From Enterobacteria phage JenK1: 60,747 nt of DNA. The DNA is taken from the sequence record NC_029021.1; one strand, written 5' to 3'. The position numbers and the translations under genes were made by a program. Of this stretch, positions 1 through 28,116 are shown one piece after another; the first letter of the stretch is position 1; each line of letters starts with the position of its first letter. Under the pieces are notes generated by a model. That model saw nothing but the letters and a program-made list of their open reading frames with translations. It ran no database searches and had not been told where the DNA came from.

Positions 1-552
1 ATGGTAAAGCCTATTCTACCTTGGACACGTAGCATTGAATACGAAGCCGATCTCACTAAAGAAGAGATGGCTATACGTGACTCTGTCGTTGAAGAATATC
101 TGTTCGATTATGATTGGGTTAATGCGTGTAAACGTGTAGGCATGAGCTCCGCAATGGCGTTTGATTATGCTAAACGTTTTCAGGATGATAGCTATTGCCA
201 AAGACGAATTAAAGAACTTCAACAGCAGAAAGCAAGAAGTGCTCAACGTGACAGCAAATATGAAATAGAACAAGAGCGCCAGCGCATCATTGAAGGTCTT
301 AGATTTGAATCCACTTATCGTGGACCTGGATCTTCTCAAGCTGCTCGTGTTGCTGCATATAAACAATTATGTAGCATCTTTGGATTTGAAGCTCCTAAGC
401 AACAGAAGATGGATGTTGGTGTATCTACTGGTGTTATGCTGGTTCCTATGGTTGGTTCTATGGATGATTGGGAAAGAGTTGCTGGGGAGTCTCAGACTAA
501 GCTGCAAGAGGATACTTTAAATGGACTCAATGATTCAGACACCGTCCACTAA
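1..552 (+). CDS. putative terminase small subunit
   Basis: 183-aa ORF starting at position 1, directly upstream of and overlapping the large terminase ORF; assigned by synteny only. An AGGAG RBS sits 7 nt before the window end, positioned for this ATG if the sequence is circular. Confidence 0.4.
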   Translation: MVKPILPWTRSIEYEADLTKEEMAIRDSVVEEYLFDYDWVNACKRVGMSSAMAFDYAKRFQDDSYCQRRIKELQQQKARSAQRDSKYEIEQERQRIIEGLRFESTYRGPGSSQAARVAAYKQLCSIFGFEAPKQQKMDVGVSTGVMLVPMVGSMDDWERVAGESQTKLQEDTLNGLNDSDTVH

Positions 553-2119
553 GGTAGTATGGAAACCACATCCAGGATCTCAGGTACTGGCACTGAGTTG
601 TCCAGCAGATGAGATTTTATATCATGGTACTCGTGGCCCTGGAAAGACCGATGCTCAGTTGATGCGTTTTCGTCGTTATGTTGGCATGGGGTACGGTAAA
701 CACTGGCGCGGTATCATTTTTGACCGAGAATACAAAAACTTAGATGACTTAGTTGCAAAGTCACAGCGTTGGTTTCCTGAATTTAATGATGGTTGTAAAT
801 TCTTATCTTCCAAGTCAGATTATAAATGGGTATGGCCTAGCGGCGAAGAACTAATGTTCCGTGTTGCTAAAAAGCCTAAGGATTACTGGCTGTACCACGG
901 TCAGGAATTTCCATTTATTGGATGGAACGAATTAACTAAATATCCTGATAGTGGACTTTATGAAGCGATGAAGTCCTGTAACCGTACATCCTTTGTTGCA
1001 GAAGAAAACCCGATAATTATTGACGGTGATGTGTATCAGAGAACTGGGCGTCTTGTGCTTGTTCAACCGGACCATGAATACGCAATGCAGTTCATACTAC
1101 CACCTTTGCCGTTGCAGATCTTTTCTACGACTAACCCATTTGGGGTTGGACATAACTGGGTCAAGAAATATTTTATTAACTCTTGCCCTCTTGGGTCCAT
1201 GAAGAAGGAAGTAACAAACGTCTTCAACCCGCGTACACAGAAACGGGAAGACGTAGTTCGAACTCGCTGCCATATATTTGGTTCGTATCGAGAGAACCGT
1301 AACTTGACACCCGAGTATGTTGCGCAGCTTGTAAACATTGACGATCCTAACCTCCGTATGGCATGGCTCGGTGGTAGCTGGGATATTACGTCAGGTGGAA
1401 TGTTCGACGACCTGTGGCGCCAGAATATACATGTGGTCAAACCATTTCCAATACCTCACTCCTGGAGAATTGATAGATCATTTGACTGGGGCTCAAGTAA
1501 ACCGTTTTCTGTTGGTTGGTGGGCAAGAAGTGATGGTAGCGATATCGTGTATCCAAATGGGCGTCGTGTACGAACAGTACGAGGTGACTTATTTAGGATC
1601 ATGGAGTGGTATGGTACTAACGGGAAACCGAACGAAGGTTTAAGATTATTGGATTCTGAAATTGCTCGTGGTATCATCGTCAGGGAAATTGAAGCTGGTT
1701 TATACGGTCGCGTAGTTCCAGGCCCTGCTGATAACAGCATTTGGGACGTTAAGGATGGTAACAGTACCGCAGCAACAATGTCTAAACCAATAACTATCAA
1801 TGGTCGGTCTTATCCCGGTGTACAGTGGATTCGAAGTGATAAATCACCTGGATCTCGTAAAGCAGGTTGGAAACGAATGCGAGAATATTTAGCTGCTTCA
1901 ATTCCGGATCCTAAGGTTGCCGCTTTACGTGAAAGACCTTCTATGTTTATTTTTGACAACTGTCATCACTTTATAGATCTTGTTCCAACTCTTGCTAGAG
2001 ACGAAGATGATCTTGATGATGTCGATACTGATTCCGAAGACCACATTGCTGACGAAGCTCGTTATCGCGTAGCCAACGAAGCACGTGGCGGTAGTATCGG
2101 TAAGACTGTTGGGACATAA
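521..2119 (+). CDS. terL: terminase large subunit
   Basis: 532 aa; Walker A-like GTRGPGKT near the N-terminus; followed by portal-sized ORF. Confidence 0.75.
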   Translation: MDSMIQTPSTKVVWKPHPGSQVLALSCPADEILYHGTRGPGKTDAQLMRFRRYVGMGYGKHWRGIIFDREYKNLDDLVAKSQRWFPEFNDGCKFLSSKSDYKWVWPSGEELMFRVAKKPKDYWLYHGQEFPFIGWNELTKYPDSGLYEAMKSCNRTSFVAEENPIIIDGDVYQRTGRLVLVQPDHEYAMQFILPPLPLQIFSTTNPFGVGHNWVKKYFINSCPLGSMKKEVTNVFNPRTQKREDVVRTRCHIFGSYRENRNLTPEYVAQLVNIDDPNLRMAWLGGSWDITSGGMFDDLWRQNIHVVKPFPIPHSWRIDRSFDWGSSKPFSVGWWARSDGSDIVYPNGRRVRTVRGDLFRIMEWYGTNGKPNEGLRLLDSEIARGIIVREIEAGLYGRVVPGPADNSIWDVKDGNSTAATMSKPITINGRSYPGVQWIRSDKSPGSRKAGWKRMREYLAASIPDPKVAALRERPSMFIFDNCHHFIDLVPTLARDEDDLDDVDTDSEDHIADEARYRVANEARGGSIGKTVGT

Positions 2120-2131
2120 GGAGTTTAACAG

Positions 2132-3658
2132 ATGGCCATTTCTTCGGTTCATCCTAAATATTTACAGTTTAGTGCATTATGGTTGAAGATGCGGGACTGT
2201 TTCCTTGGAGCTGACCACGTTAAGGCTCAAGGTACTTTGTATCTTCCACCGACACCCGCTATGCGTTATGACGGTATGAAACCAGGCGAAGATGGCTATA
2301 TCCGTTACAACGATTATAAAGAACGTGCGGTGTTCCCGGAGTATGTCGCTGATGCGGTAGTTAATCACAGTGGTATGCTTCATAGTAAGTCAGCTATTAT
2401 TCAGTTACCTGCTGCAATGGAACCCCTTCGTCAATCTGCTACCAGCAAGCGCGAAGGTTTAGATCAGCTATTACGCCGCATAAACGAGCTACAGCTACGC
2501 GATGGTCGTCTTGGCCTTCTGTTGGAGCTGCCAGCGGGAAGTACCCGTGACACGCTGCCGTACATCGCAGTATACGAGGCGTTAAGTATACGAAACTGGG
2601 ACGACGGTGAAGATGATCTTGGTTCACTTAACCTTAACCTAGTTGTTCTGGATGAGTCCAAAGAAGTAATGGACAAGACTTCATTTGATTGGACTTATAA
2701 AGTTCAATATCGAGTTCTTGTTCTTGGAAGCGCCAACGTAGATGAACCATCAGATAGCGGTTACGTGTATGGGCAGTATATGACAGAACTGCTTCCTGGT
2801 GAAGATGACGAACCAGAAGAGGTGAGCTCTGACGTTGTAGTCCCTCAGTATAAAGGTACTCCGCTTGAGCAGATACCTTTCGTATTTTGTAACGCTATGG
2901 ACTTAGTCCCAGAACCAGATAAACCACCACTACTCGCATTAGCAAACAGATGTATTTCCATTTATCAGGGTGAAGCTGATTATCGACAGGCTTTGTTTAT
3001 GCAGAGCCAGGATACGCTGGTTGTTCGTGGTGGTATTACGAACAGTGACGCAGTTGATGATAAAGCCCCTGTTCGTGTTGGTGCTGGTGCTCGTATTGAT
3101 GTATCTCCGGACGGTGATGCCAAATACATTGGTACTAATTCACAAGGTTTACCGGAGCAACGTAAAGCACTTGAAGCTGACCATAAAGACGCTCAGACCC
3201 GTTCCGGGCATTTAACCAGTGCAGAAAGTGCTTCTCAAGAATCTGGTGACGCACTGGAAACACGTCTTATCACTAAGACTGCTTCATTAGTTGGTATTGC
3301 TAAGACTGGTGCTGCTGCGTTAGAAAAAATCCTTCGTATTTGTGCTATATGGATGGGATTAAATCCAGACGAAGTTAAAGTTACACCTAACCTTGACTTC
3401 AGCAAAGCTAATATTGAAGGACAGGAATTGGTGCAGGTGCAGACTGCCAAGAATCTTGGTGCTCCGTTATGTGCTGAGTCTATGCACAACTGGTTGCAGG
3501 ATAAGGGAATGACCTCTTTGACGTTTGAAGAGGAGATGAAACGGCTTGAGGAGGAGCGCAAAGAATACCCGTTCCTTTTACCTCAAGTTAAAAACGATCA
3601 GAACCAAATCCAGCAAACAACTGGAGAACAGACGGGGAATGAAAATGCCGCTAAGTAA
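2132..3658 (+). CDS. portal protein (putative)
   Basis: 508-aa ORF immediately after terL and before scaffold and capsid genes; assigned by size and synteny. Confidence 0.6.
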   Translation: MAISSVHPKYLQFSALWLKMRDCFLGADHVKAQGTLYLPPTPAMRYDGMKPGEDGYIRYNDYKERAVFPEYVADAVVNHSGMLHSKSAIIQLPAAMEPLRQSATSKREGLDQLLRRINELQLRDGRLGLLLELPAGSTRDTLPYIAVYEALSIRNWDDGEDDLGSLNLNLVVLDESKEVMDKTSFDWTYKVQYRVLVLGSANVDEPSDSGYVYGQYMTELLPGEDDEPEEVSSDVVVPQYKGTPLEQIPFVFCNAMDLVPEPDKPPLLALANRCISIYQGEADYRQALFMQSQDTLVVRGGITNSDAVDDKAPVRVGAGARIDVSPDGDAKYIGTNSQGLPEQRKALEADHKDAQTRSGHLTSAESASQESGDALETRLITKTASLVGIAKTGAAALEKILRICAIWMGLNPDEVKVTPNLDFSKANIEGQELVQVQTAKNLGAPLCAESMHNWLQDKGMTSLTFEEEMKRLEEERKEYPFLLPQVKNDQNQIQQTTGEQTGNENAAK

Positions 3659-3731
3659 AGGCGTGCAACGTAAAGCAAAAGACAAGAGTAAAAAATAGTT
3701 GCTTCATTCTTAATGATGTATTAGTCTTTAT

Positions 3732-3761
3732 AGCGCGGTAGAACGGTCTATCGCGCTTTTT
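3732..3761 (+). terminator. intrinsic terminator after portal gene
   Basis: Stem agcgcggtaga / tctatcgcgct (11 bp, one G-T pair) with acgg tetraloop, then TTTTT. Confidence 0.6.
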
Positions 3762-3789
3762 AGTGGAACGGTCCACAATGGAGAATTTT

Positions 3790-4668
3790 ATGAACAAATA
3801 TCACATTCATCTAGCGGTAGCTTATTCCGCTGGCTTCTTCCAGTCCATGCCTCGTTTTGGTGCATTGGAACTTGAATATACTTCTGAAGATGAAATCCCG
3901 GAAAACGCGCGTGAGTATTATTCCCAAGAAGGCGATAAGTGGATCCTCACTGGTGTAAAGGGTGGTGGCAAACAGAATATTGACAGGTTGCAATCTGCAC
4001 TTGAAAAAGAACGCAACGATCATAAAGCGGTCAAGAGTAAGCTAAGTAAGCTGAACGGACGTGATATTGACGAACTCTTGCAGCGCGACGCTGAATATGA
4101 AGAGCTTAAACTGCGTGCGGATAAAGTTGATGATGAAAAGTTGGAGCAAATCATTAACGTACGAATCCGTAACAAGTTGACTCCGCTTGAGCGTGAACGT
4201 GACGAGCTGAAAAACAAACTTTCTACCTATGAGAAGCAAGTAGAAGAGCTGACCACAAAAGAGAAGAACCGCATCGTTAAGACCGCTCTCAGCAAGGCTG
4301 CAATGTCTGCTAAAGTGATCACTGAAGCTATTGACGACGTGGAACTGATTGGCTCTCGTTTGTTTGAGCTCACTGAAGACGGTCAGGTTGTGACACGCGA
4401 CGGTGTGGGTGTAACTCCTGGGATCACCCCAGAAATGTGGTTACAGGACATCCAGGATAAGAAACCTCACTGGTTCCCTGGAAACGTTGGCGGTGGTGCT
4501 GGTGGCTCACGTACCCCTGGCGCTGCTGGTAAGAACCCGTGGAGTGCCGACGGTTGGAACCTTACTGAGCAGGGTAAAATTCTTCGTGAAAATCCTGAAA
4601 AAGCAGGCCGTCTGGCAGCCATGGCTGGCGTGGACTTGAAGCGTCCAGTACGTCCAGTTAAAAAATAA
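3790..4668 (+). CDS. scaffolding protein (putative)
   Basis: K/E-rich coiled-coil-like protein with Gly-rich C-terminal region, between portal and capsid genes. ATG at 3790 has a GGAG RBS; the ORF-track start at 3763 is a GTG just after the terminator. Confidence 0.5.
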   Translation: MNKYHIHLAVAYSAGFFQSMPRFGALELEYTSEDEIPENAREYYSQEGDKWILTGVKGGGKQNIDRLQSALEKERNDHKAVKSKLSKLNGRDIDELLQRDAEYEELKLRADKVDDEKLEQIINVRIRNKLTPLERERDELKNKLSTYEKQVEELTTKEKNRIVKTALSKAAMSAKVITEAIDDVELIGSRLFELTEDGQVVTRDGVGVTPGITPEMWLQDIQDKKPHWFPGNVGGGAGGSRTPGAAGKNPWSADGWNLTEQGKILRENPEKAGRLAAMAGVDLKRPVRPVKK

Positions 4669-4677
4669 TAAAATTTG

Positions 4678-4706
4678 TTGACACTCCCTCCGGTTGGTGT
4701 TAGTTT
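4678..4706 (+). promoter_or_regulatory. candidate sigma70-like promoter in capsid gene leader
   Basis: TTGACA (4678-4683), 17-bp spacer, weak -10 TAGTTT; followed by two overlapping hairpins. Confidence 0.25.
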
Positions 4707-4806
4707 TACATCAACCGGAGCACGGGCTCCGATCAATCAAGGATTATTGGAGCCTCCCACGGCGGTAGAGTTCCAAAGTAAATCGATTAACTTTGCGGAG
4801 ACTACC

Positions 4807-5910
4807 ATGTCTAAAATTCTGTCAGCTCCGATGCTTAATTTGCGAGCTACCAATTCAATTCTTCTGTCTGCTGTTCGTCGTGGTGCGATCACTGAACTTG
4901 CAGATGTTATCGTTCCAGAGATCTTCGTACCGTATGTGCAGAACCGCACAACTGAAAAGTCCCGACTGATTCAGTCTGGTGCTATTGAGATTTCTGAGCG
5001 TCTTAACGCTGCATTGATGGGTGAAGGTACTACCTTTAACCAGCGTTTCTTCAAAGACCTGGATCGTGACGAAGAAAACGTTTCAAGCGCAAGCGATGCA
5101 ACCGATTCTACTCCTGGTGGTATCAAATCTGGGCGTGAAATTCAGATCCGTCTGTCCCGTAACCATTCATGGGGTTCTGCGGACCTGCTGGACAGCCTGA
5201 TCTCCCCTGACCCGCTGGACGCTATCATTAACTTAGTGGCAAGCTACCGTCAGAGCCGTCTGCAACGTGCATTCGTTGCAACTGTAGGTGGTGTGTTCGC
5301 TATGAACGCCGCTGCTCCGGCTGGTTCCGGTGATAAGAAGTCTACTCACGTTCAGAACGATATGACCCACGACATTTCTGGTTCATCCTTCGTTGATGGT
5401 GTGACTAACTTCAACCCGGCTGGTGTTATCCTGGCGGCTGGTACTATGGGTGACTCCCTGAACGACCTGTCTATGATGATGGTTCACAGTGTGGTCTACC
5501 AGCGTATGCAGCTAATGAACCTGATCGACTTCATCCCAGATGCTCGTGCTGAAGTAATGATCCCGACCTACATGGGCCGTGAGGTTATCGTTGACGATAT
5601 GATGCCGCATGAAAGCGGTAAATACGAAACCTGGCTGGTTGGTCGTGGCGCATTCCAGTTAGGTGTTGGTTCACCGAAAGTTCCTGTTGAAACTGAACGT
5701 AAACCTGCATCCTACAAAGGTGGCGGTTCTGAAATCCTGTTCCACCGCTGGGAAAACATCATTCACCCTGTCGGTCACGCATGGGTTGGTACTGCTGCTG
5801 AAGGTGGTCCGGATAACGCCGCTCTGAAAACTGCTACCAACTGGGCTCGTGTATTCCCTGAGCGTAAACAGATTAAGATTGCTCGCCTGATCACTCGCGA
5901 ACACGCTTAA
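4807..5910 (+). CDS. major capsid protein
   Basis: 368 aa from ATG 4807 (ORF-track start 4675 is TTG inside the structured leader); strong host-like codon bias (ctg, cgt, ggt, aac); follows scaffold gene and ends at a terminator. Confidence 0.7.
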   Translation: MSKILSAPMLNLRATNSILLSAVRRGAITELADVIVPEIFVPYVQNRTTEKSRLIQSGAIEISERLNAALMGEGTTFNQRFFKDLDRDEENVSSASDATDSTPGGIKSGREIQIRLSRNHSWGSADLLDSLISPDPLDAIINLVASYRQSRLQRAFVATVGGVFAMNAAAPAGSGDKKSTHVQNDMTHDISGSSFVDGVTNFNPAGVILAAGTMGDSLNDLSMMMVHSVVYQRMQLMNLIDFIPDARAEVMIPTYMGREVIVDDMMPHESGKYETWLVGRGAFQLGVGSPKVPVETERKPASYKGGGSEILFHRWENIIHPVGHAWVGTAAEGGPDNAALKTATNWARVFPERKQIKIARLITREHA

Positions 5911-10470: not shown

Positions 10471-10899
10471 ATGTCTTCAGAAAACAAACAAGTATCCACT
10501 GAAGTTGCAAAGAAAGCTGTTGGTACATCTTTCCGTGACTTTAACTTGAAAAAGAAATTAGAAAACGCTCCGCTGTTGCATTACCCGCTTGTTTTTCCAG
10601 GACAGGGTGATACAGGTCACTGGTTGAAAATTCGCAACCGCCACAGCGAAGAATTTCGTCAAGCAGATTTAAAAGCGCAACGTCAGATCAGTGCGCTTGT
10701 CGTTGCCAACGGATCTTTTGAAAAGATTGATAAGGACATGCTCGACGATATCAATATGCGAGCGTTCTGTAAATTGGTTGCTTCGTGGAGCTTCGAAGAA
10801 GAATGCAACGAAGACAATCTTCTTGAATTCTTTGATAATAATCCGTTTGCGTATGACGACATTAATCGTCTGGCAGCTCAAGATTCCCTTTTTTTCTAA
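10471..10899 (+). CDS. tail assembly chaperone (G-like)
   Basis: 142-aa ORF directly upstream of tape measure; ends just after a T-rich slippery run. Confidence 0.65.
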   Translation: MSSENKQVSTEVAKKAVGTSFRDFNLKKKLENAPLLHYPLVFPGQGDTGHWLKIRNRHSEEFRQADLKAQRQISALVVANGSFEKIDKDMLDDINMRAFCKLVASWSFEEECNEDNLLEFFDNNPFAYDDINRLAAQDSLFF

Positions 10900-19665: not shown

Positions 19666-22600
19666 ATGGCAATTCGTTTACATGGTATTTTAGTTGATGG
19701 ATTGAATAAACCAATCGTCAATGCAAACGTCTTCTTACTTGCACGAAGCAATACTATTGTAGTTCTAGGTGGAAGTAAAGCGGTATTTAAGACCGATTCA
19801 CAAGGTGCTTACGACGTCACAGTGAACACCGGGCATTATGTGGTTATCATTGGACCAGAAGGTAAGGAACCATATAAAGCGGGTGACATTGTAATCTATG
19901 CAGATAGCCAGAACGGTTCACTTAACGCATATCTTACTAAATGGGCTCCAGAAGAAACCACACCTGAAATACTTCAGGAAATAAAGCAACTGGTGGCTAA
20001 CTCTGAGCAATTTGCATTGCAGGCGTCTGAATCTGCTGCTAATGCTAAGAAGAGTGAGCTTAACGCGGAGACAAGTAAAAACTCTGCTGCAACGGACGCA
20101 GCGTCAGCTCTGCTGTCAAAACAGGAATCTGCTGCTAGTGCGTCTTCCGCATTGCAATCCAAGAACGCTGCGGCTGGTTCTGCTACATCAGCTCAACAAG
20201 CTCTTACTGCTGTGCAAGGACTCAAAGCTGAAGTTCAGCAATTAAAAACCGACACGCAGCATATTAAAGAAGAGGGCGTCGCTGAAGTAACAGCTCTCAA
20301 AAATGCTGCAACTACTGCGGCTAACAATGCTAAAGCATCAGAAACTGCATCTGCTAATAATGCGACTTTGGCTGATACTAAAGCAAAGGAAGCGTCTGCA
20401 AGTGCAACCACTGCCAATCAAGCGAAAGTAGCTGCTGAGGCAGCAAAGGCCGCATCCGAAGCAAGCGCAGTTGAGTCCGCTACTTCTGCTGGTAAATCGC
20501 AGACCGCAGCTAATGCAGCTAAGGCAAGCGAGACGGTTGCAACACAGAAGGCAGCTTCGGCCTCTACGTCTGAAACTAATGCGGCAGCTTCCGCTCAGAC
20601 TGCGACTAGCAAAGCTGGTGAGTCTGCCGCTAGTGCTACCGCAGCTAAGGCAAGCGAAACTAATGCTAAGACTTCAGAAACTAATGCTGGTACATCAGCT
20701 GGAAGATCTGAGTCTGCTGCTTTACGCTCAGAAGCTGCTGCCCAACGTGCGGAAGACATCGCTGATGCAATTGGTCTTGAAGACGCAACTTTGACTGTCA
20801 AAGGTATCGTTCGTCTTAGCAATGATACTAACAGCACTGCTGAGAACCTGGCAGCTACACCAAAAGCTGTTAAAACAGTCATGGACGTTGTTAATACTAA
20901 AGCTCCGTCAAGCAGTCCTGTTCTAACTGGTGTACCAACGGCACCAACTCCAGCACCTGAAGTCAATAACAATCAAATTGCTACAACTCAGTTTGTACAC
21001 CAAATTATAAGCGCACTGATTGGTGATGCACCAGGCGCTTTAAACACTCTGAAGGAGTTAGCTGACGCTCTTGGCGGTGATCCGAATTTTGCAACGACGA
21101 TAACCACACTTATTAACAGTAAGTTGGCTAAAGATCAGAACGGTGCTGACATTCCTAATAAGCAATTGTTCATTGATAACGTTGGTCTACGCGAGACTGT
21201 CAACTTAGCTCTCGGTGCATTGAAGAAGAACCAAAACGGTGCGGATATACCGGACAAAGGTGTCTTCCTTAATAACATCAATGCTGCCAGCAAGACGGAT
21301 ATGGCCGCTAAGAAAGGCATGAAATATACTGTGGTCAATGCCCCAGCGGGGGTTGAAGCAGGTAAGTTTTATCCTGTTGCGATTCGTCGTTCTTCTGGAT
21401 TCAGCAGTGAATTAGCATCCAGGGTGACAATAAGTACAGGTTCAAGAACGGGAAACCATAGGCTGAACAACTGCGAGTTCAATGGTTTTGTTATGACTGG
21501 TGGTTGGACTGACAGGGGACGTTATGCTTATGGAATGTTCCACGCATATACTGCAAATGAACGTGCTATTCATTCCATTCTGATGAGTAATAAAGATGAT
21601 GATCTGTGCTCTGTGTTCTATGTCGAAGGTGAAGCGTTCCCTATTTCTGTATATGTAGAAGAAGGTTTATCTGTTGTTGTACCATCTGCCGACTATGTTG
21701 TCGGACAAACGACTTACAAATGGGGTGCTACAGACCCTAGAACAGAATGCGTGGCCACTGATACTGTACTTGATTTCTCCAATGGTAGAGGATTCTATAG
21801 TTCTCACGCTCTCCTCACAAATGTAGATATTAGTGGTGCCAGAATCTACGCTAACGGTGAAATCGTAGCTCGTGGTGAGAATCAAGTCCGCATGATTGGT
21901 GGAGACTATGGTGCATTATGGCGCAATGACGGTGCCAAGACCTATCTCTTATTTACCGCTAAAGGCGATCAATACGGTGGTTGGAACGATTTAAGACCAT
22001 TTATGATTGATAACGCTACCGGTGAGTTTACCATTGGTACTAAATTGAACGCCGGTCAAGGTGTGAATGGTAACGCATCCAGTGCTACTAAGTTACAAAC
22101 AGCGCGTAAGATTGGTGGCGCCTCGTTCGACGGTACTGCTGACGTCAATCTTCCAGGTGTTAACATTCAGGGTAATCAGAACACAACTGGTAATGCGGCA
22201 ACTGCTACCAAACTACAGACAGCACGTAGGATTGCCAATGTACCTTTTGATGGTAGTGGTGATATATCAATTCCACCTAGAAATGTGAATGCGTTTGCGT
22301 TAGGACTGACAGGTAGTATTAGTGTAGAAGATGATATAGATAACAACAGCGTTCCGTGGAATGCTATATCTGGTGTCTATAACCATCAGAGAAGGGGTAG
22401 CTCGGATCTTGTAGTTCACTTTTATCAACATACTGGTTCAACTCCTGCTTTACAGATAAGAGGTAACTATAAGAATGGTGGTATTTGGTATCGTACAGCG
22501 CGTGATGGCTATGGTTTCGAAGAAGATTGGGATCAAATTTACACTAAAAAGAACCCACCTCCTGTGGGTGAAACCTTACCTGTAGGTGTTCCATTACCGT

Positions 22601-23328
22601 GGCCTACAGATACACCACCGTCCGGTTATATTGTAATGCAGGGTCAACCCTTCGATAAAGCTGCATACCCGAAACTGGCTGCTGTATACCCAACGGGTGT
22701 ACTTCCAGATATGCGTGGTCAAACTATCAAAGGTAAACCAGCAAGCGGTCGTGACGTACTTTCTACAGAAGCTGATGGTGTGAAATCACATACTCACACT
22801 GCGTCTACTGCATCTGTCGATCTTGGAAGCAAGACAACTTCTAGCTTTGATTATGGTACTAAAGGGACAAGTAGTTTCGACTACGGTACTAAGACGAGTA
22901 ATAATACTGGTGCGCATACACATGGTATTAGCGGAACAGCAAATAGTGCAGGTGGGCACCAACACCAGAGTTCTGGACCATATGCGAATTCTAGTGATAG
23001 TGATCTCTTTCCTAACGGTTATACCCAGGTTTCAGCCACAAACAAACCAGTTGTACCACGGCAAGGTGGCGCAGGTATGACCCGTGTATCAGGGAAGACA
23101 TCATCAGATGGTGCTCATACCCACTCGCTGTCCGGTAGTGCCGCAAGCGCAGGTGCTCACGCACACACTGTTGGTATTGGCGCGCATACGCACTCAGTCG
23201 GTATTGGTGCTCATAGTCATACAGTCGCTTTAGGTTCGCACAGCCACGGTGTTACAGTTAACGCAACTGGTAACACAGAAAACACTGTTAAGAACGTTGC
23301 ATTCAACTATATTGTGAGGGCTGCTTAA
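19666..23328 (+). CDS. stf: side tail fibre protein (lambda Stf-like)
   Basis: 1220 aa; N-terminal domain, long Ala/Ser/Thr-rich repeat region, and C-terminal GAHxH repeats ending [16 protein letters not shown], which matches the lambda Stf C-terminus as recalled. Confidence 0.85.
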
Positions 23329-23905
23329 TGTCTTTTGAAATGAGTAATGAAGACCAGACTGTAACTGTGTACGACTACTCCAATGATACGGGCGAATATG
23401 TGGGAACCCGTGAAGCGTATGTGGTGGCCAACACAGGTCTTCCAGCATGTTGTACTGATATGGAGCCTCCAGTGGCTCCAGAAAATCATGTGGCGATTTT
23501 TAAAATAGACAGCGAAGTATGGATTTTGCGTGAGGACCATCGAGGGAAAGTCGTATACGATAAAAATACAGGACTTCCTTTAGTGATAACCACAATTGGA
23601 TCACTCCGGATAATGTGACCTATATCGCTCCCAACGGCGAGTATATGAAGTGGAACGGCGATATGTGGGTGGACGACCCGGATGCACAACGTGCTAAGTT
23701 GGTTGCGGATGCAACACAACATAAAACAGATCTTCTTAATTTAGCAGATTATAAAATCAGTATTCTGCAAGATGCTGTGACTTATAATCTAGCTACTGAC
23801 GAAGAAAGTTCGATGTTGGAATCGTGGAGAAAGTTTCGTGTACTTGTGAACCGCATAAACGAAAACGATCCACAGAATATTATCTGGCCTGAGTCTCCAG
23901 AATAA
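23328..23905 (+). pseudogene. tfa: tail fibre assembly protein gene (tfa) split by a frameshift at about 23604-23606
   Basis: ORFs 23328-23618 and 23615-23905 together align colinearly with lambda Tfa as recalled; continuity is restored by a -1 shift after CTC at 23604-23606. Confidence 0.6.
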
Positions 23906-24099: not shown

Positions 24100-24813
24100 A
24101 TGTCTGACATGACTCTTATTCCGGGCGGTTTGGGTGGCGGTTTCGGTGGTGAAGCTGGCGCAGCGGCCGTTGGCGGTGGTATCGGTGGCTTAATCGGTTC
24201 GTGGATCGGAAATGGTTGGGGTGGCAATGTCGGTTGGGGTGGTCGCGGCGGTTGGGGTGGTGGTGTCGGTGAAGTCCAGGCTTCCGTAGATACTAACGCA
24301 ATTCTGCAAGCCATCAATAACGGCAACCTGCAAAACATCCAGGGCCAGAACGGTACTAACCTGACTGTCGAACGTTCTGCGGCGTCCACCTTCAACGGTA
24401 TTACTCAACAGAACACTCAGAACATGCTGGCTTCCGTTCAGGGCTTTGCTGGTCTGAACACTGAAATTCGCACTGGTACAGCGTCTGTCGTAGCTGCTGT
24501 CAATGCTGCGGATGTAAACGCGTTGAACCGTTCCTTCCAGGCTCAGTTAGCTGCTCAGGAATGTTGCTGCGAGACCAACCTGAACATCGAACGTCAAGCG
24601 AACGAAACCCGTGGCCTGATCCGCGATCAGTTTGCTCAGTCTCAGGCTGTTCTGATCTGTGATCTGAAATCTCAGTTGCAGGAAGCTCGCTTTGCGAACT
24701 CCCAGCTTCATCAGACCGCTCAGATCGATTGTAAGATCAATCAGGTTGCACAGCTCGTTAACTTCAAACTGCCAACCCCTCCGACTCCGCCGACTGGTTG
24801 TTGTGGTTGCTAA
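24100..24813 (+). CDS. Gly-rich N-terminal / Cys-containing hypothetical protein
   Basis: 237 aa; N-terminal 60 aa dominated by GG/GW repeats, Q/N-rich middle, CCC and C-terminal GCCGC; strong host-like codon bias; bracketed by terminators. Confidence 0.6.
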   Translation: MSDMTLIPGGLGGGFGGEAGAAAVGGGIGGLIGSWIGNGWGGNVGWGGRGGWGGGVGEVQASVDTNAILQAINNGNLQNIQGQNGTNLTVERSAASTFNGITQQNTQNMLASVQGFAGLNTEIRTGTASVVAAVNAADVNALNRSFQAQLAAQECCCETNLNIERQANETRGLIRDQFAQSQAVLICDLKSQLQEARFANSQLHQTAQIDCKINQVAQLVNFKLPTPPTPPTGCCGC

Positions 24814-26108: not shown

Positions 26109-26144
26109 GTGGGCCAGTATAAACGTATTGGCCCACTTTTTATT
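26109..26144. terminator. terminator at convergent junction of plus late genes and minus replication operon
   Basis: 8-bp stem gtgggcca / tggcccac, 12-nt loop, then TTTTTATT on plus strand. Confidence 0.55.
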
Positions 26145-28116
26145 AAGCGGCGTATGCGAGTTTTTCCAGCAATTTTTCCGCTTTAGCTATGTACACTTCG
26201 TGGTTGAGATCTGGCGGTAATTGGTCAGTGAGTTCCATCATTGGTTTACCCCCTGCTGTCTTACCAACACGACCTCCACTCTTGACTATTAGTATTTCAG
26301 GTACTTCTTCTTTTGTATAGTACCAGCGAACAACCTTACCTAACGGCTCACTATTCCACGCAGCTCCACCATTAGCTGTCTTGATACAAACAAACTTACG
26401 AATATCCTGACACTCTGTGATAGTTTTGGCAATTGGTGTACCGTCACGAAGCAGATTAACAACTGCATCCATAATGATCTCACCTTCTGCGTTTTTAGCA
26501 AGACCTGTCTCAGCGAACCAACCTTTACGCTTGGCTTTACCATCCGCTTTGATTGCAACGTAGTTGTTAACGTTTGCAGAGTTAAGGCGCAGGTACTGGT
26601 TCAACTCCATTTCAAAGCCAGTTGTCTCTTCCCACCACTTAATGATATCTGTCATTAATTGCTTCTTAGCTTTGCAAGGTTTAATAACAATACCGTCCGT
26701 GTTAGCACTGACGACCTGAATACCGTTAAGCTCCAGTGTTTCAATGAGCATAAGCAAAGCCAACTGGCCTGTCAATGTGGTCTGAATAATAAGGTGCGGT
26801 GCATACAGAATAGAGAACGGTGAACCGAACTTACCATAAGAACCGTTAATAACGATCTTAAGAGTTTGTGCAGTCTTATCGTCATGAGCCATCTTAGCTG
26901 CAATACGTCGTTCTACGATCTTAACAAAGATATCTATAAAGCGCGGGCCCAGGTGCTCAGGATACAGTTGCTGGTTAATGATACAGATTGGGTAGTATGA
27001 CGTTACGTCAGCATCCCACATCTCTTCATCTTCAGATGGTACAATCTCCATTAACTCTTCGCAGGAGTGCAGACCACCGATACCCATGTTGTAGGTTGTC
27101 TGATTGATTGTAAACTTCAAAGAGTTCATTGTAGATGGTTGCTTAATTTTACCATCTTCTGCAACTCGGAAGTAACTATCAAGCACAACCTGAAATACAG
27201 ACTTCATTAGTGGAGTTTGGAAACCTAACCACACTGGAGGATTGTACCTAAAGGTTCTGCCAACTTCCACCATTCCCTTCTGTGGTACGAAGCCCAGCAT
27301 TTCCTTCATTTCGTGACGGATTACAGCTTCTGCAATCTGTGCATCGGATTTAGAGCGAAGGTCCACTTTATACTCTTCACTCATAATCTCACGTAGATGG
27401 ATCTGTTCTTCCAGGGAGTTAAACAGAGCCATTGTTGTATCAAGGTCGTTAATACAGTAGAAGCGCACAATAGCGATCTGTTCTACGGATAACGCCCAAT
27501 GTGGTGGGAATGGTAAGTCCTGGAGCTTCTGCATGTGCATACGGCCACCATACAACTTCAGCGAACCGAAGCCAGGAGCTACCTCTTGAACGTCAATGTG
27601 GTCAATCCAAAACTGTTTTACACCAAAACTGTTAAGAATGTCCCACGGAGCCCACTCTTCCTGGATCATCCTGTCACTTGCTTCTTTCAGCTTGTCAACA
27701 GTTAAACCAGCAATGGCAAGGAATGTCATCGTATTATCGTAGTTTCTTGAGTTGAAACCAACAGTACGAAAGTTCTTCATTATCCATTCATATTTTTCCG
27801 TGTCGAGTGTCTGACCGGCAGTCATTTCTAGATAATAGACCTTACCGAACTTAACCCCTTTAAACGCCACAAGAAAATAGTTCTTGTAACATTCAATATC
27901 GTATACGAACGTTTCTTGCGCAAAATACATCTCCACTAATTCACCGTCTGTCATACGCGGATCATTAGCTGCAAAACGCATTGCTGCATCAAGACCTGGA
28001 AGGTAATCCGGGCGTTCCCATACCCTTTCAACTGGTTGACGTTTTACTTTCTGTTTCTTCTCTTTCTTAGCGGGAGGTAAATCCTCCCAAAAGAAACCAA
28101 TAGCATCTTTTCTCAT
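26143..28116 (-). CDS. DNA polymerase, family B, with 3'-5' exonuclease motifs
   Basis: 657 aa; Exo I YDIE, Exo III YCINDLD, motif A DVTSYYP, motif B KIVINGSYGKFG, motif C NTDG. Confidence 0.8.
   Translation of the reverse strand: MRKDAIGFFWEDLPPAKKEKKQKVKRQPVERVWERPDYLPGLDAAMRFAANDPRMTDGELVEMYFAQETFVYDIECYKNYFLVAFKGVKFGKVYYLEMTAGQTLDTEKYEWIMKNFRTVGFNSRNYDNTMTFLAIAGLTVDKLKEASDRMIQEEWAPWDILNSFGVKQFWIDHIDVQEVAPGFGSLKLYGGRMHMQKLQDLPFPPHWALSVEQIAIVRFYCINDLDTTMALFNSLEEQIHLREIMSEEYKVDLRSKSDAQIAEAVIRHEMKEMLGFVPQKGMVEVGRTFRYNPPVWLGFQTPLMKSVFQVVLDSYFRVAEDGKIKQPSTMNSLKFTINQTTYNMGIGGLHSCEELMEIVPSEDEEMWDADVTSYYPICIINQQLYPEHLGPRFIDIFVKIVERRIAAKMAHDDKTAQTLKIVINGSYGKFGSPFSILYAPHLIIQTTLTGQLALLMLIETLELNGIQVVSANTDGIVIKPCKAKKQLMTDIIKWWEETTGFEMELNQYLRLNSANVNNYVAIKADGKAKRKGWFAETGLAKNAEGEIIMDAVVNLLRDGTPIAKTITECQDIRKFVCIKTANGGAAWNSEPLGKVVRWYYTKEEVPEILIVKSGGRVGKTAGGKPMMELTDQLPPDLNHEVYIAKAEKLLEKLAYAA

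Follow-up and report, generated by a model that had tools for sequence, protein, structure and literature searches.

What is an array of HxH motifs doing at the distal end of a tail fibre gene of Enterobacteria phage JenK1? An earlier note on this DNA, by comparison with the long tail fibre tip of phage T4, had suggested a metal-stabilised receptor-binding tip. The window analysed here, i.e., the whole stretch of 60,747 nucleotides (sequence record NC_029021.1), is a Nonagvirus (9g-like, Queuovirinae) siphovirus genome; its first 25 kb are 97.8% identical to HdK1, and it is collinear with 9g. We consider it very probable (about 85%) that the region encodes the distal part of the side fibre in a 9g-like siphovirus, a collar-plus-needle homologue of T4 gp37 and lambda Stf whose trimeric state and bound metal are predicted by analogy.

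The motifs lie in a single gene, stf, whose 1220-residue product is, by exact database match, the annotated tail fiber protein AKA61062.1 of Enterobacteria phage JenK1. The product contains the Pfam domains phage_tail_N, Gp34_trimer, gp37_C and Collar, and it matches PHROG 295 (tail fiber; E = 4e-214); NCBIfam gave no match for it or for either half of the adjoining Tfa protein. The 9g orthologue bears the annotation 'side tail fiber', and the next gene is one for tail fibre assembly. In both 9g and HdK1, the orthologue lies downstream of a gpJ-like host specificity protein, and the window is collinear with both phages. The 3663-nt ORF is unbroken in JenK1, and stf is a single ORF in 9g and PD328 as well; in the pieces of HdK1 (1501-5167) and HdSG1 (301-4018), the annotation gives two overlapping CDSs for it, which points to frameshifts. 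The gene and its modules are as follows.

19666..23328, plus strand: stf, side (lateral) tail fibre gene, 1220 aa (ORF, Pfam, PHROG and exact database match).
19666..20058, plus strand: N-terminal attachment domain of the lambda-Stf type, aa 1-131 (PF08400, E = 1.3e-22; PDB 9e7m, E = 3.8e-13).
21670..22008, plus strand: shaft module resembling the T4 gp34 C-terminal trimerisation domain, aa 669-781 (PF21446, E = 8.8e-39).
22342..22557, plus strand: gp37_C knob ahead of the collar, aa 893-964 (PF12604, E = 1.6e-7).
22570..22788, plus strand: N-terminal part of the collar domain, aa 969-1041, equivalent to T4 gp37 D10 (PF07484 and alignment to 2XGF).
22789..22965, plus strand: outgoing (descending) needle arm, aa 1042-1100 (HxH1-3 and two SSFDYGTK repeats).
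22966..23115, plus strand: hypervariable tip, aa 1101-1150, the presumed receptor-binding head (identity to homologues; DNA comparison with 9g).
23116..23247, plus strand: returning (ascending) needle arm, aa 1151-1194, with HxH4-8 (27-nt period; PF03335).
23248..23325, plus strand: C-terminal strand going back into the collar, aa 1195-1220 (alignments).

Judged by these matches, the stf product is a typical mosaic fibre. The PDB entry matched by its N-terminal domain, 9e7m, is a tail fiber protein, and the shaft is rich in Ala, Ser and Thr, with stretches resembling Mu protein S. The gp34-like module is matched by the gp34 structures 4uxe and 5nxf at about 1e-17, and the Mu S/S' structure 8ju3 matches aa 875-969. 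The Collar domain (PF07484) starts from aa 974 and scores 41.5 to 44.7 bits against a cut-off of 24; the collar is also matched by that of a gp12-like short fibre, 9cuy (E = 2.4e-6). The two SSFDYGTK repeats of the outgoing arm occupy nt 22840-22863 and nt 22870-22893. Phage_fiber repeat PF03335, a GxHxH-containing 14-residue repeat and the curated Pfam name for the needle repeat, was found in six stretches (30.8 bits against a cut-off of 20). The C-terminal strand aligns with T4 gp37 residues 1010-1026 and is near-invariant across T4, lambda, 9g and 39 homologues.

The eight HxH motifs listed by the earlier note are all present, in the order given and in one reading frame, that of the 1220-residue ORF.

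22789-22797, plus strand: HxH1, HTH, aa 1042.
22915-22923, plus strand: HxH2, HTH, aa 1084.
22957-22965, plus strand: HxH3, HQH, aa 1098.
23116-23124, plus strand: HxH4, HTH, aa 1151.
23158-23166, plus strand: HxH5, HAH, aa 1165.
23185-23193, plus strand: HxH6, HTH, aa 1174.
23212-23220, plus strand: HxH7, HSH, aa 1183.
23239-23247, plus strand: HxH8, HSH, aa 1192.

All 16 histidines within the final 252 residues belong to these motifs; the other 968 residues hold 11 histidines and not a single HxH. When the 252-residue C-terminus was shuffled, 0.95 HxH were obtained on average, and shuffling the 157-residue needle gave 1.5; eight were reached in none of 20,000 shuffles in either case. The five alternative frames of 22780-23270 contain zero to two HxH and 3 to 17 stops. 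Therefore, the array is real and far beyond chance, and both chance and another reading frame were ruled out as its source.

The description of the array as GAHxH tandem repeats needs to be narrowed. GA stands in front of only five motifs, KS, GG and GS in front of the other three, and the spacings along the protein are 42, 14, 53, 14, 9, 9 and 9 residues, so that only the last four motifs are in strict tandem order (period 9 aa, or 27 nt). Tandem Repeats Finder (TRF) reports just 2.4 copies, at 23164-23227. At the DNA level, the repeat copies are only 63 to 81% identical. This rejects a recent tandem duplication of the HxH units and indicates that the repeats are old and maintained at the protein level. 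The histidine columns do not vary in 39 homologues, save where entire layers are missing.

The likeness to the T4 long tail fibre tip proved to be one of direct homology rather than analogy. Residues 969-1220 of stf match PDB 2XGF, the receptor-binding tip of T4 gp37, with an E value of 1.9e-62 (phmmer versus PDB; 2xgf_A 27-242), and 132 of the 216 aligned residues (61%) are identical to T4 gp37 811-1026. In T4, residues 811-881 and 1010-1026 (D10) form a collar, and residues 882-1009 (D11) form a needle inserted in it, along which seven iron atoms are coordinated (Islam et al. 2019, PMC6957217). The T4 segment 811-1026 holds seven HxH (883/885, 915/917, 929/931, 966/968, 980/982, 989/991 and 998/1000) and no further histidine; all 14 of these histidines align with histidines in JenK1 stf. 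H929 and H931 of T4 are iron ligands at which alanine is not tolerated, and packing around F970 and H929 depends on G921 and G964 (PMC6957217). Both glycines are kept in stf (G1090 and G1149, respectively), where L1155 is aligned to F970. Sets of three HxH are known to form octahedral His6-Fe sites in gp37, in the fibres of R-type pyocins and in the spikes of P2 and phi92 (PMC6116203). By analogy with these, the histidines of stf would lie on the axis of a trimer and hold a metal.

How, then, does an eighth motif fit a needle that has seven in T4? Compared with T4 gp37, whose outgoing arm has a single FDYG repeat, stf has a second SSFDYGTK copy (10 residues) inserted in the outgoing arm and an extra 9-residue GAHxHxVGI unit in the returning arm, where the alignment puts the insertion at aa 1165. 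The resulting layout, with three outgoing and five returning HxH and two FDYG repeats, is common to JenK1 stf, lambda Stf (orf-314) and phage 9g. Arm lengths were compared in two sets of homologues, namely 118 of the 120 closest listed (the best 120 of 1793 at E<=1e-10) and 86 parsable representatives of 50%-identity clusters, from which two mis-parsed cases had been set aside. The HxH were assigned to arms by a spacing-based parse, and the length of an arm was taken as the distance from its first to its last HxH. The needles examined carry from 5 to 10 HxH each. Across ten distinct architectures, the outgoing and returning arms co-vary in length (r = 0.996, slope 0.93, constant offset of 13 to 18 residues). 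Such coupling is expected of a hairpin needle, in which both arms must span an equal length, and as evidence for that topology it is indirect and sequence-based. JenK1 follows its relatives, with 56 outgoing and 41 returning residues and an offset of 15. A simpler count rule, by which the descending HxH plus the FDYG repeats should equal the ascending HxH, was dropped since it fails in 7 of the 118 proteins, those with 20-residue repeats.

Given this coupling, the eighth HxH is most plausibly a genuine added layer, and hence a predicted eighth metal site, rather than a loop. The site is without counterpart in any solved structure. Korf et al. 2019 have noted 7 to 9 HxH repeats in gp37 of T4-like phages (PMC6563267). 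The coupling also suggests a rule for the family, in which the needle grows by matched units on both arms, and this would help in modelling or engineering such tips.

Between HxH3 and HxH4, the picture is the opposite of the arms. The 50 residues of the tip (aa 1101-1150) have a mean identity of 21% to 39 homologues, versus 60 to 77% in the arms and collar. Against 9g, the DNA of the tip (nt 22893-23140) is 38 to 52% identical, versus 83 to 94% in its flanks. A second island, nt 22185-22530, has a sliding DNA identity of 39 to 72% to 9g, versus more than 90% in its flanks; this second replaced cassette takes in the gp37_C knob, which directly precedes the collar, and may be either a second specificity determinant or merely a swapped module. 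The tip allele of JenK1 was found only in HdK1 and HdSG1 (96.7%). Its further relatives occur in the lambdoid phages mEp332 and ev099 (~53%) and in the T4-like phages ST0 and PNJ-6 (46%), and the lambda-like tip carried by 9g is absent from JenK1.

By analogy with T4 and Ur-lambda, aa 1101-1150 are presumed to be the receptor-binding head. The T4 and Ur-lambda tips bind OmpC and/or LPS (PMC6957217, PMC12617516), and lambda Stf has been described as resembling gp37 in its distal part by structural homology and as binding OmpC with that part (PMC12617516). Furthermore, the BASEL study has described strong variation at the lateral fibre locus in these genera and has proposed O-antigen glycans as primary receptors (PMC8594841). 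The delimited 50-residue cassette would be the part to exchange for retargeting the fibre.

The arrangement that we propose is taken over from the T4 structure. Three chains would intertwine; each would exit the collar, descend the needle via HxH1, the two SSFDYGTK repeats, HxH2 and HxH3, make the small variable head (aa 1101-1150) that touches the receptor, and then climb back via the five further HxH to rejoin the collar. Each HxH layer would enclose, with six histidines contributed by the three chains, a single axial metal, most probably Fe(II), so that a fibre would hold eight ions, i.e., those of T4 plus one. The ions would act as rivets, setting the register of the thin needle and stiffening it, and the swappable tip would set the receptor specificity. 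Folding would require the Tfa chaperone encoded directly downstream. An AlphaFold2 monomer model of aa 969-1220, built with a 40-sequence alignment, is unreliable (pLDDT 52.6, pTM 0.23).

The chaperone gene adjoins stf, and in JenK1 it is split into two ORFs.

23328..23618, plus strand: N-terminal half of tfa, 96 aa (PHROG 7290/105; Pfam PF28596 Caudo_TAP_N; match to lambda Tfa).
23615..23905, plus strand: C-terminal half of tfa, 96 aa, starting at a GTG that overlaps the first half's stop (PF02413 Caudo_TAP, E = 3.4e-27).

The two halves are 44% and 42% identical to residues 1-93 and 97-191 of lambda Tfa, respectively. In 9g, tfa is one uninterrupted gene of 579 nt; relative to it, JenK1 lacks one C between 23605 and 23606, and the first ORF stops 10 nt past this deletion; the tfa of PD328 is also intact. 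The break coincides with the boundary of the Caudo_TAP_N and Caudo_TAP domains. Six short Logan contigs (SRR9598210-15) are 100% identical to the window and have the same two tfa ORFs. Since they share the deletion, it is not an isolated mistake in the JenK1 record. HdSG1 is also changed at this TC-rich site, by a +2 insertion that produces the same frame, and HdK1 has a different frameshift further upstream. Owing to this split, the assembly of the predicted needle by JenK1 itself is uncertain. The split may mean that a dispensable fibre was lost while the phage was grown on rough laboratory strains, or it may represent a tolerated two-piece chaperone.

In a further ORF downstream (24100-24813, plus strand, 237 aa), the N-terminal third is extremely rich in glycine (GGLGGGFGGEAG...GWGGGVG), the middle contains Cys (ECCCE) and the tail reads PTPPTPPTGCCGC; the ORF is conserved in HdK1 and JenK1 as a 'hypothetical protein'. 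Elsewhere in the window, the slippery sequence CCCTTTTTTT occurs at 10886-10895, at the end of a 142-aa ORF (10471-10899) upstream of the tape-measure gene; in 9g, the same motif reportedly directs a programmed -2 frameshift in the G/T genes for the tail chaperone (PMC4276943). ARAGORN called a tRNA-Ala(TGC) at 26546-26619 (plus strand), within a 657-aa ORF on the minus strand (26143-28116). This call is probably a false positive, because Rfam at the gathering threshold found nothing anywhere in the window, tRNA included.

Of the alternatives to the proposed needle, the one that fares best is that stf is intact but its fibre is not made or folded, the HxH array being a relic in a laboratory-adapted stock whose tfa is frameshifted. 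The deletion shared with the Logan contigs fits this view, as do the tfa frameshifts of HdSG1 and HdK1, both of which have a split stf as well. Laboratory lambda (lambda PaPa) offers a parallel, having no side fibres owing to a frameshift in stf, and the fibres are non-essential on K-12 (PMC12617516). [quoted passage not shown] Against it, the 3663 nt of the JenK1 stf ORF are uninterrupted, and the split falls exactly between the Tfa domains with a GTG overlapping the first stop, so both halves could still be made. We therefore regard such a relic as doubtful, though worth keeping in view.

Conversely, the cut in tfa might not be decay at all. The site could be prone to repeated slippage that turns the assembly of side fibres on and off, or the two pieces could form a working chaperone that folds the eight-metal needle; we take either version to be unlikely.

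It is quite unlikely, too, that the fold is as proposed with a metal other than iron, such as zinc, nickel, another divalent ion or a mixture, depending on growth conditions. The stf sequence does not tell one metal from another, and the HxH site of T4 gp12 holds zinc in the crystal, possibly from refolding in a zinc salt; however, the native HxH His6 sites listed in the same report (gp37, the pyocin R1/R2 fibres, P2 gpV and the phi92 spike) all hold iron (PMC6116203). Moreover, at the 61% identity between JenK1 stf and gp37, the ligand columns are identical.

Finally, the HxH repeats might be kept merely as recombination boxes or as a beta-strand repeat, with no metal bound, a reading suited by the position of the HxH-bearing conserved arms on either side of the swapped tip, by an identity drop versus 9g that starts and ends within these arms, and by the GxHxH 'His boxes' of T-even gp37, which Tetart and Krisch reportedly described as sites of recombination or duplication. 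We dismiss it as highly improbable, because the repeat DNA is too diverged to serve homologous recombination within the gene well, the histidines are invariant at the protein level, and the equivalent columns in T4 bind iron and are not replaceable by alanine (PMC6957217).

The collar-plus-needle reading thus assigns the distal 252 residues of the side fibre of JenK1 and the 9g group to the structurally solved gp37/Stf needle and predicts eight metal sites for the needle of JenK1. Anyone wishing to obtain functional fibres from JenK1 should first check the split chaperone gene. Beyond annotation, the significance is small: the kinship of lambda Stf and T4 gp37 and the iron-binding HxH array are already established.

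In comparison with the T4 gp37 tip, the JenK1 fibre shares the needle inserted into a collar and the conserved C-terminal strand. It differs in having eight HxH instead of seven and accordingly eight predicted metal sites, and in a tip of 50 residues instead of 34, the two tip sequences being unrelated. Furthermore, gp37 belongs to the long tail fibre of a myovirus, whereas the needle of JenK1 sits on a siphovirus fibre of the Stf type, and the JenK1 chaperone is lambda-Tfa-like. The R-type pyocin fibres, P2 gpV, the phi92 spike tips and T4 gp12 follow the scheme predicted for JenK1, with an octahedral His6 site made by three HxH on the axis of the trimer (PMC6116203); each of them has one such site, whereas JenK1 has an array. 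Homology of the stf sequence to these HxH proteins was not detected beyond the gp12-like collar (9cuy).

Within the genus, the side fibres of 9g, HdK1, HdSG1 and PD328 are encoded by the same gene at the same locus, with 91 to 95% DNA identity where aligned, and have the eight-HxH architecture. JenK1 differs from 9g in the two replaced cassettes (nt 22185-22530 and the tip, nt 22893-23140), and from 9g and PD328 in that their Tfa is intact at 192 aa.

Outside the genus, lambda (Ur-lambda) Stf is among the closest known systems, which bears out the label 'Stf-like' that the region had been given from the start. Like JenK1 stf, it is the side fibre of a siphovirus, with a PF08400 N-terminal domain, a Tfa homologue directly downstream (42 to 44% identity), 65% identity over the last 234 to 252 residues and the same eight HxH (three outgoing, five returning) with two FDYG repeats. 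The differences lie in the tip allele between HxH3 and HxH4, in the shaft, which is longer in JenK1 (1220 aa) and a mosaic with Mu S-, gp34- and gp37-like modules, and in the split of the JenK1 tfa. By its sequence, JenK1 stf adds to this family one member with a lambda-type, predicted eight-layer needle and a less common tip allele.
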